Made by a program: the position numbers and the translations under genes
NCBI GenBank assembly: GCA_020137815.1
Contig: CM035359.1
Coordinates: 2,480,001-2,544,000 of the forward strand
Origin: Hormiphora californensis
Taxonomy: Eukaryota > Animalia > Ctenophora
DNA: 64,000 bases
Direction of reading: 5' to 3'
Notes under the pieces: generated by a model
The model's database searches: none
Seen by the model: the letters and a program-made list of their open reading frames with translations, nothing else
What the model was told of the DNA's origin: nothing
Part shown: positions 33,201 through 42,200 of the stretch, one piece after another
How positions within the stretch are numbered: position 1 is the stretch's first letter
Layout: every line of letters begins with the position of its first letter

Positions 33201-36200
33201 GGGTAAGGAGGCCAGATGGGAAAAATATTTAAATTACAGTTATAGGACGGTTTGGGAAAACCGGGAATGGAGCCAGACAAAAACATTTTAAAAAAGCGAA
33301 GGCTTCCCTGATATGAATTTGGGGGGGACTGGGGGGCCCTTTTGGCATGGGAATAGTTTTCCCCTCCTTCGGTCCATCTTTCACCCTTTTTTCAAAGTTT
33401 TCAAAAAAGGGACGTTCCAAAAAAAATTTTTGGGGGAAGCTGGGTTTCAGGGAAACATGCCCGTTTTCGTTTGATATTGTATATAAAAAAACAATTTTAG
33501 CTCTATTTTCGTCCCATGTCTTCTCCCTTATTAAAGAAAATTTGGGAAATGGGGTTTGAGGGTTTTTTTGTACCAAATATCCCTTTTTTGGGGCACGTGC
33601 ATTTTTAGAGGTGGAGTTTAGAGGGGGGGAGCCTTTCCAAGGTTTGGGTTGCAGTATTTTCAATGATGTATTTTTTTTGGGAAACATTCGGGCCATTCTG
33701 ACCCCTAGGGTTTTAAGGGGTAACAGAAAGAGTCGGTAAAATAGAAAAGGGGGGTACCAATAACAGTTCTTTACTTTCCTATTTGAGTCCTAAACCCCTA
33801 TTTATTTGGGTCCTTTTTGACCCTAAAATATCCCTTTTAAATTTTTCCCCCAGGGTTTTTTAAAAGAAAAAAAAGGGAAATTCTAATAGGTAATGTATCC
33901 ACGTTTTCCACTTTCTTTTCAACAATCCTTCTCGGGGTTTTTAAAATGAAGGGTGGGGTGGGGTGTGTGTGTGCGTAAAGGGGTTAATAAAATAGCAGGA
34001 CACGGAAATTCACACACAAAAGTGCACACCTTCTTTTTTGTTTATCAAAACCTTTTTAGAAAAATTGAAAAACAAATCTCACTCAGTCATTACTAAAAAG
34101 CCTTTTATTGTCGGTGTTCATAGACAATTTAGTTTTTGGGCCCTTTCTCCTGTTTTTTGTTTCTTTGTTTTTTTGGATTTTATCACGGGAAAACCCGAAA
34201 CCCCAAAACCCCTAAGCCTCCATAAAAGTGAGGAAGTAGCTCTACTCCCTTTTCCGGTTTTTTCAGTTTAAACCAAATGGCCGTTTCCCTTCTCAAAAAA
34301 TTCCCAATGCCCCCAAAGGTTTGGACTTTGGGGAAAGGAAGGCTCAGAAAACACCACCTATGATTTAAAATCAGAAACCTAAGTACCCCCGAATCACATC
34401 ATCAGTCTTATTATCGGGGAAAAAAAGAAAAAAATCTGTCACCTCTCACCAAAATCCCTTTTAACCAGCCCAGCAAAAAAACCCTCCACACCCCCCAAAC
34501 TACTTCCGGGGGTTTACTCCAAAACCCGGGCCCCCTATTTTTTTTTCGTTAGCGGGATTTAAAGGAAGAGGAATGGGGGTTTGAAGCGGAGGGGGCCGAG
34601 GATTTGGGGGGTAGAGGTGGGGAACGAAAGAGGCCCCCTTTTTTCAGTTTGGGAAATTTTTTTAAAAAGTTACAGCTAGGTTTTGTTCAAAAAACAAAAC
34701 TATCTGGTTGAAAAAAAACCCTCGTTTCATACCTCAAAAAAACCATTGGTTTTAAAAACGCCCTGGGAGGGGGGGGGGCGACATGTTAATTTTGATAAGG
34801 GTCAGCACACATAGCTGTAGGTGTAGGCGCCAAAATCAAAAGTTTGATTTGGCGTGTGGTTTGTGCTGACCCTAACTTTGTTTAAAAAACAGGTGATATA
34901 TTTGCATAATAAACAAAAGTTAACAGACAACAAATCCAAATCCCCTTTAGCATTGGTAATGAAATTACCACAACGCGAAAGCTCATTTGTACAGCCCAGA
35001 GAGAATAATAAAAACTCTGGACAATTGTCCAAACTACATTCATTTAGATGTAGGCGTTATTATATACAATCGGACCCCGATTAGTGGCACCCCGATTTAG
35101 TGGCAGGATTTTTTCCCCCGAGGATGCCACTAAATCGGGGTCCGACTGTATATATGGGGGGGGGGGCCAAGGCCAAAAAAAGCCAGATCAATCCCGGATT
35201 TTAGGGCGGGTTTGGCTTTTTTTGGCTTTTTTTTGGCCCTACTTTTTTGGTCATTTTGGCATGTAATTCTGACATTATATGGTCTGTATGACACTAAAAA
35301 CACTTTTAAAATGGCTTCTTTGATCTAGTTTTATCATTTTATATCGATAGGGAAATAATTTTTTTACCGAAAAAAGTTTGATTTAAAAAAAGCCAGATCA
35401 AAAAAGCCAGATAAAAACCAAGCCAAAAAAGCCATATCAAAAAAAGCCAAAAAAAGCCAGATCAAAACTGCCAATCAAAAAAAAGCCAGATCAAAAAAGC
35501 CAAAAAAGGCCAAAAAAAAGCCAGATCCAAAAAAAGCCAGATCAAAAAAGCCAAAAAAAGCCAAAAAGGCCAAAAAAAGCCAGATCCAAAAAAAGCCAGA
35601 TCAAAAAAAGCCAAAAAAAGCCAAAAGGCCAAAAAAAGCCAGATCAAAAAAAGCCAGATCAAAAAAAGCCAGATCAGACCCGGATTTCAGGGCGGGTTTG
35701 GCTTTTTTTGGCCTTGGCCCCCCCCCCTATATATATAATATAATATGCAATGATAGGGGTGAATTCGTAACCAACCTTTAGTACGTGTTTTTGGTATTGA
35801 ACACTTGCTGCATGTTGTTCTGCCAGTTGTTGTTATTTGCAACTGTTTCAGGGTGCCAATACGTCAGCACAATCAAATTGACATAAATAAATGAAAGGCG
35901 AAGAATTTGGATTTGTATATAATTTCAATTTTCAACGTGTTTTCTAGTAAATACAACATTGCACTGTCCTTGCTAACACAACAACAGCTTCTAAACGCGT
36001 CCATGAATGTTTTCGAGTACAATGTCCATTGTCCCCTTTCTTACCGGGAAGGGGGAAGGGGAAGAGAGCCCCATCCCTAGAAAGAATACGTGCACGACAT
36101 TGTGAGAGAACAGCACAGGAGGGAGAGAAAAAAGGGGATTATCGTACCCAATGAATGTGTATAGTTTCGTATCTCATCGATCTTCTTACAGTCCGTCATA

Positions 36201-39200: not shown

Positions 39201-42200
39201 ATAGCAATCTGTATCATCACAAACCCCGTTACAGTTTCTCACGGAAGCCGTCTCACATGACTTCGTGTATCCACCTATGCATGGGAAGCTATTCGGTCGA
39301 CAAATATCCCGCGTTGCTCTGGGATAGTAACTGCTCTGGGATAGTAACCTGCATGCGGCAACCCCACAGAGCACTTTATTGGATGTCAGAGACGTTACAT
39401 CAACATGAAAATACCCGCACATCTCATACTGTAGGGGGTCTCGGGGACATGTCGCGTTGAAAACCCATCGTGTAGAACGGAGGGTGTAGTAGAAATCGTT
39501 TGAGTTGTGGCACTGGAACAACAGTATCCCTGTCGCCGCGAGGTCTGCTACATCAGAGAACTGATGGGTACAGACCCGCTTCAGAAAGCCTTGATACGGG
39601 GTGATCTTGCACTCTTTCGGTGACAGGAATGAGTCAGCTGCACCCACTGCAGAGAGAGTATAAAGGGTTAATACCGGGGCAATTTGTGACACCATGTGTT
39701 TGAAGGGGGCGAATCTATGATAGAGGGCTGACAATTTGAAAGGGGCTGTTCGGTACAATGCTGTACATGTGTGTATGTGTATGGTATATTCCATTGAATC
39801 TAACAATTTACCTGCTATGATGAGTGTTAATGCTCTCAGCCATAACCCGCTCATGCTGTATGGAGAAATAGCAACTCCTCAGCTGGACTAAGTAGCTAAG
39901 AAAATTAGAAAATATAATGATAATAGCTGATAGATTTATTATGATATGTTATCTTCGATAACACAATCTACATGTGCGGTCCAAACAAAGCTAAATTATT
40001 TCAAATTCGGATGATTTAAAATCAAACTTTTACAATAGTAAGTTAATCTTAAAGTAGCATCCCTGTATTTATAGTTGTATCAAAGTTATATCTACAACAA
40101 AATATAAATATATATATTTTGTTCGCTCAATGGTTATATTCATAAACAATAAAATAATCGCAATTCCAGGAAATTCTAATATATGAAAATATGTCTTTAG
40201 TGCTCTAACAATATAATGCACTAAAACAGTGCATTATATTGTAGTCTGTAGATCTTGAAGCTGAATATAAAATATTATAAAAGAACAAAGGATTTAGATA
40301 CTGAATGCTGCTATTTGTATGCTGAGCGCCCCATTGCAAAGAGAGCAACATGTAACGCAGATTTTCAAACTTTTATCAACTACAACGTAAAATAATTTAT
40401 CTTTTAGCATTTGTTAATTTTGCTAATTTTGTAAATTAACTTTAGTTAACAAAATCGGAAAAAAGAGTTGATTTATTAACAATTAACATGTCGCCCACCC
40501 CCCCCCCCCATCACCCTTTTTAAACTTCAATTTGCAAGTCATATAATTTACTATTGACTGAGTTTTACCTAAAGTTCATTCCGCTGCCGTTACATGCCAA
40601 ATACAAGTACAAGAGAATATTGGCTCAGTTCTCAAAATAGCCCCCTCGGCCCTCTTGTGACCTATCAGGAACCGACCGAATCAGGAAATAATGGTCCCTG
40701 ATTGGCTGATAACCAGTCACGTGACCTAAATAACGAGTTCTGATTGGCTGTTTACTTGTGTTGGTCGGTTCCTGTGACCTTTATTTCAGGATGGTGCCCA
40801 GTGTTCAAGGCAGGGAGTACGAACTGGAAGGACTACATATCAAATATTCTTTCTATTGGTACCAAGTAAGCCAGTATGTCAATTCGTTTGTTGTTACAAA
40901 AATATGTTGGACGCTAACAGTGGCCAACAAGCATCCCTTATTATCCCGGCTATTTCTATATGGGTATTCCGTATTGAGAAACAGATGGAGAAGATGAAAC
41001 TGTATGACATAATTATATTATATAATATTTGGAATCGTGATTTCTAATTCCTGTACCCCATTCTCACCAGGAGGTGTGCTGGCATCAAGAAAAAGGGATA
41101 CTTTGAAACTTGTTTACACAATGCCATGGTGCAGTTTGCTACATACCCCTTTCCAATTAAGGTAAGACCACATACCATATATGGGTATCACGTGGTTCAT
41201 ATTACCAGGCGTTATATGGGCATAATATATAATTCCCCAGGACCAAAACGTGATTAACTTTATGAGTATCCGACACCCCTACGAGAGGCTGGTGAGCGCA
41301 TTCCGTGACAAAGTCGAACCAGCGAACAAAATGCAGTTCTATAACAAAATAGGGTCCTTCGCGAAACGAAACTATAGGATCCTTCCAAATGACCTGGAGA
41401 ACGAACGAGAGGAACTATCCAGGTTATCAGACATGGTCGTACACCAAAAACTACCATCGGACCCAAACAACCCCTTGGACAACCCGCGGGGTCCAACTTT
41501 TGTTGAATTTATAAAGGCAGTGCTTATTGATGGAGTGATGGATCAGCATTGGCAAAGTATGGAAAGATACTGCGCTCCCTGCTGCTATGGATTATGATGT
41601 CGTGGTGGATTTCAGAACTATAACGAGAGATAATCTGTATGTTATAAAGGAGATGGGGATGGATATTGAGAAGTGGGGTGGTCATAGTAACCCAACTAGG
41701 AGTGGAGGTACTAAGGAGGAGCAATGGAAGGGGTACTTCAAACAGTTGGACTGAGTGGATGCTCGAGGGGATTCAGAGTTTCTATGCAGTTGATTGTGAG
41801 CTCTTTGAGTTTGATTGTGGGATTCAAGAGTTTTTGTAATGTTATTGGTTTTATATTTGGGTAGTATTTTAGTAGTATTTTGGGTGCAATAAAGCATGCA
41901 ACTTGTAATTATGGTTATCATCCGCAATGCTGTTTTTCTTCTCATTCCTATGAATAAAATACATTCCTCTGAATTCTAAAAGAAATCAGTAAATGATCTA
42001 ACATTTGAATTAAAAACTTAAATTAGATAAAAAGGTATTCAAACTCACCAATATGGGCAGTTCCGGATAGCAGAAAGATATTGTGGACGTAAATGCACGC
42101 ACTGTATACAGTCCTGAGTATCTCCTGCGCTATGTCGTGCTGGTATGGCCGCTTTGCAACAAAATATTGCAGAAACAGCGTGTTGAGAGACTGAAACGAG

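Follow-up and report, generated by a model that had tools for sequence, protein, structure and literature searches.

An intact receptor gene between paired ends of a non-autonomous DNA transposon in an intron of the ctenophore Hormiphora californensis

We analyzed a window of 64,000 nucleotides from the ctenophore Hormiphora californensis (GenBank assembly GCA_020137815.1, contig CM035359.1, positions 2,480,001 to 2,544,000 of the forward strand, numbered here from the first letter of the window). In it, a 5,745-bp unit at 34765-40509 is made of one left and one right end of a terminal inverted repeat (TIR) transposon family, also seen free of cargo at 2262-3096, and between these ends lies an intact gene for an LDLa-type G-protein-coupled receptor (LDLa-GPCR). 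The unit is a real and unusually large whole-gene Pack-TIR, and has the features by which that class can be tested: correctly oriented ends of one TIR element enclosing sequence that does not belong to a transposable element (TE), a target-site duplication (TSD) around the whole unit, and no transposase frame, as in a non-autonomous element. We favor DNA-level capture of the receptor gene, and our preferred account, which we put a little short of even, is that the gene was copied at the DNA level into an element elsewhere and then carried into intron 1 of a sulfotransferase gene in one jump. The parts of the unit, its open reading frame (ORF) and the small element are as follows.

34765-35823, plus strand: left arm, a G-run followed by GACATGTTAA..., with nested insertions inside; homology to the family picks up again at 35775-35823.
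22355-23336, plus strand: left arm in the accurate first copy, 97.8% identical to 34755-35743.
40399-40509, plus strand: right end, ...TTAACATGTC and then a C-run; 92% over 103 bp to 2994-3096.
22347-22354 (first copy), plus strand: left TSD, ATCGCCCT; in the error-rich copy (34757-34764) it appears as AACGCCCT.
40510-40517, plus strand: right TSD, ATCACCCT.
2262-3096, plus strand: small cargo-free element of the same TIR family, 835 bp; TSD ATGTGATT.
36495-39695, minus strand: LDLa-GPCR ORF, intact and single-exon, 1,066 amino acids (aa) counted from the likely start methionine, with a Cys-rich ectodomain and a rhodopsin-type seven-transmembrane (7TM) region.
35824-36494, minus strand: receptor 3' flank without poly(A), holding a 266-bp palindromic insert at 36186-36451.
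39696-40398, minus strand: receptor 5' flank, about 700 bp, 31% GC, with no significant homology to the interior of the small element.

The ends were recognized by comparison with the small element, which reads G12-ACATGTTAA ... TTAACATGT-C10 with ATGTGATT on both sides. The left end of the unit matches the left 175 bp of this element in three pieces of 30, 66 and 50 bp, with identities of 93%, 82% and 88%. Within the window, the terminal motif GACATGTTAATT has three occurrences, at 2273, 22370 and 34780, and its reverse complement likewise three, at 3076, 23941 and 40481; the motif is confined to the termini of the small element and the unit and to their duplicate copies, and these positions indicate that exactly one left and one right end stand around the ORF. 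Both ends of the unit read G-C-GACATG (GCGACATG) where the small element has G-G-GACATG (GGGACATG), and because both carry this private variant we regard them as a pair. The original prediction placed the ORF between one left and one right end of this family and found no transposase in the unit; the end matches and motif positions uphold the first point, and the second agrees with our finding that the second-longest frame in 34765-40509 is 140 aa. Its description of the left end stands as a match to the small element, although not as a continuous one, since nested elements amounting to about 900 bp lie within it.

The two flanking copies of the target, ATCGCCCT and ATCACCCT, are alike at 7 of 8 bases. 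Of 200,000 position pairs drawn at random, 0.08% matched at 7 or more of 8 bases, and allowing 3 bases of slack at each end raised this to 1.8%. The repeat had been described as 8 bp in both elements; this holds for the unit, in which 8 bp is the only reading, whereas either 8 or 9 bp can be read for the small element, whose last C is assignable to either side. The G-rich termini of the ends fit MuDR or Merlin, which are candidate superfamilies. The TSD length (8 bp in the unit and, for the small element, either 8 or 9 bp) fits both groups alike and does not decide between them, as lengths are 8 bp in Merlin and 4-10 bp in the MuDR group (PMC10045372). The summed contig depth in the bin of the right end is 25,000-37,000 in three DNA runs, compared with about 60-500 on the host gene, suggesting that the family is likely high-copy both in the source organism and in a relative. 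An exact search of metagenome contigs with a 24-base right-end motif returned 0 matches.

These observations bear on the idea that the receptor already lay in the intron and that two unrelated ends flank it by chance. Such a coincidence would be helped by the apparently high copy number of the family, and nested genes are common in ctenophores, with 2,357 reported in Hormiphora, 176 of them with TEs on both sides (PMC8527503). However, the chance of the TSD is 0.08-1.8%, the ends are correctly oriented and have a variant in common, and the intron without the unit would offer only about 350 bp, so that we give this explanation almost no credence.

The assembly is disturbed to the left of the unit. 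The window has a 100-N gap at 23481-23580, and from 23588 to about 34760 there follows a second copy of 2713-22350 that is rich in errors (75-85% identity, with homopolymer-type errors), an assembly artefact that repeats the first host exon with its frame broken. Accurate sequence in the second contig starts at the left end of the unit, where identity to the first copy rises from 0.77-0.87 (up to 22400) to 0.92-1.0. The evidence for the left flank is therefore the first copy together with the in-frame join of host exon 1 (end 22276) to exon 2 (start 40790), in keeping with the original caveat that the accurate left TSD is read from the first copy, across the gap. The first copy holds both the left flank and the left arm and overlaps the second contig by about 990 bp at 97.8%; its last stretch before the gap, 23337-23480, is other sequence with no other match in the window, and could be a further insertion or another allele. 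The left arm can be taken as contiguous because the nested element at 34953-35774, its largest interruption, is bounded by its own TIR and TSD, and family homology returns directly after it. On the right, the receptor start, the right end, the TSD and the host intron are spanned by single contigs, 39543-40689 in run X1, which may be the source sample, and 39555-40667 in run X5, which belongs to another study. The host gene has these parts.

21742-22276, plus strand: sulfotransferase exon 1 in the accurate first copy, with a phase-1 donor GT at 22277.
40790-41594, plus strand: downstream exons, with exon 2 from 40790 and Sulfotransfer_2 (Pfam PF03567, E 6.5e-13) in 41226-41594.

The unit starts 78 bp into intron 1, which would measure about 350 bp (78 + 272) without it, and the receptor is antisense to the host. 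In run X5, contig depth is 166 at the right junction versus about 340 on the host exon contigs, which could mean that one chromosome is without the unit; this is a lead, as depth does not equal copy number. The last host exon shows an apparent change of frame near 41590 and 41750, which may reflect assembly error or decay.

Pfam places both 7tm_1 (E 1.2e-9) and Ldl_recept_a (E 6.7e-7) in the one ORF, which identifies it as an LDLa-GPCR of the rhodopsin class. The ORF aligns to P0002 at 64% identity over 1,033 columns with few gaps, and the 7TM assignment is based on this alignment and on Pfam, not on a Kyte-Doolittle scan, which at a threshold of 1.6 found four of the seven expected helices. 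It retains 170 of the 186 columns that are conserved in 17 distant relatives, and two Pleurobrachia bachei paralogues retain 170 and 168. The probability that a neutral ORF of such length stays open is 0.013 when divergence is 3% and 0.0008 when it is 5%; either selection preserved the receptor ORF, or it entered later than the ends. Among the best-supported 40 of about 1,000 rows there are 29 differences in the ORF, 18 of them synonymous and 11 not, a split that points to constraint on the receptor family rather than specifically on the copy in the unit. The single record from run X13, which we guess to be RNA, lies on an unrelated repeat and has no bearing on expression. In run X1, two contigs with the same limits and shared flanks cover 37848-38160, one of them identical and the other with 41 differences, and could represent a gene-conversion patch.

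The sequence at 35824-36494 is likely the 3' untranslated region (UTR) of the receptor. Part of it, near 35980-36140, is covered by further contigs in X1 and X5 and by one in X7, from a second organism, which fits a native 3' UTR carried along with the gene. The 266-bp palindromic insert at 36186-36451 begins 44 bp beyond the receptor stop, and contigs without it are present in X1 and X5; it is either polymorphic or missing from a near-identical copy. Between the ends, the 557-bp interior of the small element (of its 835 bp) is missing from the unit, the best score being matched by 18 of 200 shuffles and thus not significant.

We regard it as highly improbable that the receptor is a retrocopy put into a resident TIR element by a long interspersed nuclear element (LINE). 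The one-exon coding region and the apparently intact LINE nearby (45533-49878) speak for such an event, and intronless receptors are known to arise by retroduplication (PMC11526382). However, a search beside the gene found no poly(A), the longest T-runs on the plus strand of 35740-36500 being 5 bases; no duplicated target was seen around the gene, single long ORFs are also present in distant relatives, and a plain insertion would have left in place the element interior that is missing here. The gene had been called intronless, which has been established just for its coding region. Because the interior was lost, the flanks were kept on both sides of the gene, and neither a poly(A) nor a repeat of the gene's own is present, we favor DNA-level capture.

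It is conceivable, although very unlikely, that two ends of the family landed around the receptor at its home locus and that the outer ends then moved the whole block, by composite transposition or end-bypass. This would account for a whole gene with native flanks and no remaining donor copy. In three runs a very large number of contigs fall on the right end, which makes it likely that genes commonly have ends nearby, and both ends of the small element are hairpins around a direct-repeat core. Specifically, the termini at 2262-2372 and 2992-3096 each form an imperfect hairpin (z -4.3 and -3.4), and they have in common a directly repeated core, AAAAAA(C/G)AGGTGATTT, at 80% over 79 bp. The inner ends that such an event requires are absent, however, as the gene has just a single left and a single right end around it, and the private variant common to both is what one element would be expected to carry. 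As a separate observation, hairpin ends with a directly repeated core are an unusual end design. The KolobokP composite-like transposons resemble the small element in that their ends have a common directly repeated core and can each form a hairpin (PMC9587614). We rejected that identity, because in KolobokP the direct repeats measure about 450-660 bp and the TSDs 3-5 bp (PMC9587614), whereas the ends here are about 100 bp, with inverted outer termini and an 8-bp TSD.

In the account that we prefer, a template switch in repair or replication would have placed a receptor locus of about 4.3 kb (5' flank, ORF and 3' flank) between the ends. A transposase acting in trans, likely of MuDR or Merlin type, would then have brought the loaded unit to its place 78 bp inside the intron, and the left arm would later have gained nested MITEs (miniature inverted-repeat transposable elements). 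The unit is now probably immobile, and selection likely kept the receptor ORF open. The age of the ends can be judged from the inserts in the left arm.

34799-34872, unstranded: 74-bp hairpin insertion with TAA/TAA flanks (fold z -6.0), which we take to be Harbinger/Tourist-like.
34953-35774, unstranded: nested element with a 17-bp TIR and a 9-bp TSD (CCTTTAGCA/CCTTTAGTA), itself holding two TA-flanked MITE-like inserts at about 35067-35148 and 35156-35727.

A solo 68-bp copy of the family of the nested element, with a perfect 9-bp TSD (TGTCACCAA), is present at 7484-7551. The four nested inserts in the left arm, one substitution in each G-run and the one TSD mismatch are signs of age, which suggest a divergence of several percent since insertion; this is a rough figure from few sites.

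The competing possibility that we take most seriously, and consider somewhat less likely, is that a cargo-free element inserted in the intron first and that the receptor locus was later copied in by gap repair on site, so that the gene never moved with the ends. A survey of 370 Pack-TIR cases (Tan et al. 2021, PMC8277862) describes two routes, gap filling of a resident element, which is short, local and accounts for most cases, and template switching followed by transposition, which yields multicopy, distal ones. Most animal Pack-TIRs are single-copy and filled in place, and of the unique ones, mostly filled in this way, 57% lie at most 15 kb from the parent, while the multicopy ones are distal (PMC8277862). 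The unit resembles these single-copy cases in having non-TE DNA and a TSD with the ends of one TIR element, and in its apparently single copy, and a heavily interrupted left arm beside a clean ORF would also suit filling in place, as would the lack of a sibling on the 5' flank, which is weak evidence. In-place fills, however, are short (median 224 bp), mostly fragments, remove a median of 4.6% of the element, and mostly copy nearby DNA (PMC8277862). The fill here is a whole gene of more than 4 kb, about 20 times that median, two thirds of the length of the small element is gone, and no paralogue lies in the window. Size, loss of the interior and the fact that the window holds no paralogue therefore lean toward template switching followed by transposition, while base rates and the single visible copy lean toward filling in place.

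Several points weigh against the capture and jump that we prefer. Filling in place is the usual animal route, with a cargo-free element at the orthologous site in 91 of 97 primate Pack-TIRs, and only 4 multicopy Pack-TIRs (1.4%) are given in the same survey (PMC8277862). The ends look older than the intact ORF requires, an age that filling at a later time would fit as well. Among the contigs, no further loaded copy having another TSD was seen, a weak point as contigs cannot show absence. The interior was compared with one family member only, possibly of another subfamily. Neither a parent locus nor an autonomous partner came to light in the sequences at hand.

The original prediction proposed the element as a candidate vehicle for expansion of the receptor family, which could explain how its intronless members multiply and come to lie in introns of other genes. 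Among 43 matches, the closest named relatives of the receptor are proteins of Pleurobrachia bachei (63-64%), Mnemiopsis leidyi and Bolinopsis microptera, and in a quick tree of 24 rows, including 23 of the 43 matches, the P. bachei proteins EP00116_P001159 and P001251 (63-64% identity) form a fully supported clade with it, from which a pleurobrachiid source is inferred. These two, Mnemiopsis KAL5246874.1 and Bolinopsis XP_063687923.1 have the same Cys-rich LDLa ectodomain and 7tm_1, and their genes are not known to be flanked by transposon ends. Distant relatives also have single long ORFs from stop to stop (1,122 aa in L001, 1,131 aa in L012 and 1,004 aa in L003), and because these ctenophore-like contigs lack the ends described here, intronlessness appears to be an old trait of the family. 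In 23 distant receptor loci (26-43% identity) there was no end motif and no significant end match, only three weak hits (E 0.035-0.042), and in the 6 of them examined for an inverted repeat around the ORF none stood out; these short, distant contigs give both searches little power. A receptor search of viral contigs yielded 0 confirmed loci from 3 candidates, and no other GPCR match was found in the window.

In the contig runs of the source species, related receptor contigs cover the ORF and 3' flank (at position 38034, three other contigs in X1 and four in X5), and no parent locus was placed. Over the 5' flank (bins 39711-40337) the bridging contig stands alone, at depth 60 in X1 and 166-170 in X5. 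Contigs cannot prove absence, but a single contig here argues weakly against recent siblings, which would have shared that flank. Run X7 has no cover in bin 39711-39919 and partial cover in 39920-40337, a hole that proves nothing, and its nearest relatives of the ORF are about 8-10% different. Thus the proposed role in family expansion finds no support, given the single-exon ORFs of distant relatives and, weakly, the one contig per run on the 5' flank. The further claim that a complete receptor gene was mobilised as cargo stands in so far as a whole gene lies in a TSD-flanked TIR unit, and not as regards movement of the loaded element. The unit likely gave the receptor family one copy, and not a general expansion.

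Among known systems, the closest in content is Ssk-FB4 of Drosophila melanogaster, a Pack-MULE among the Pack-TIRs, which is likewise a non-autonomous TIR element with a long TSD that carries a nearly whole gene and its upstream region (PMC8277862). It differs in being young, polymorphic and multicopy with distinct TSDs, with a known parent and a 17-kDa protein, and it did transpose (PMC8277862). Our unit, unlike Ssk-FB4, has one known copy, old-looking ends of about 100-175 bp, a 1,066-aa receptor and an intronic antisense site. The only near-complete genes given in the survey are Ssk-FB4 and an ARF6 retrogene (PMC8277862); its median of 224 bp confirms the earlier remark that cargo usually consists of fragments, with Ssk-FB4 as a precedent for nearly a whole gene. 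Plant Pack-MULEs also have a TIR interior replaced by gene sequence and a TSD of 8-9 bp; unlike in the unit, what they carry is mostly fragmentary (median 305 bp), and it is rare for one to be protein-coding (PMC8277862, PMC5861414). We found no report of a GPCR or ctenophore Pack-TIR in the literature searched. The published list of TE-flanked nested genes of Hormiphora could bear on this; in the part of PMC8527503 drawn on here, none of these genes is described as cargo.

Several other features lie in the same window, outside the unit.

17065-19743: presumably Chapaev-like element whose TIRs are 921 bp long (99.8%), with termini reading CACGGTG and TGTT duplicated as a 4-bp target; as a lead, its ORF at 18143-18637 is similar to RAG1 N-terminal zinc-binding proteins, with an atlas score of 0.88-0.89.
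45533-49878: the LINE mentioned above, apparently intact, with two ORFs, endonuclease and RVT_1.
52860-64000, plus strand: multi-exon spectrin-like gene (Spectrin repeat, E 0.00024), its exons read by eye.
8984-10383, 50575-51598 and 53161-53760: more long-TIR or palindromic non-autonomous elements.
43392-43752, plus strand: small two-exon gene for a short, secreted-looking protein with no Pfam match.

Whole-gene cargo is rare in animal TIR transposons, and a conserved 1,066-aa receptor within paired ends would rank among the largest cases. The importance of the finding hinges on the existence of further loaded copies. We think it unlikely, but worth stating, that the family is a pleurobrachiid gene shuttle that repeatedly captured LDLa-GPCR genes, whole, single-exon and complete with promoters, and left functional copies of them in introns; if true, this would account for part of the receptor expansion and of the many nested genes of comb jellies. 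The unit in any case offers a concrete and testable route for the origin of a nested intronic gene, in a phylum that has thousands of them (PMC8527503).

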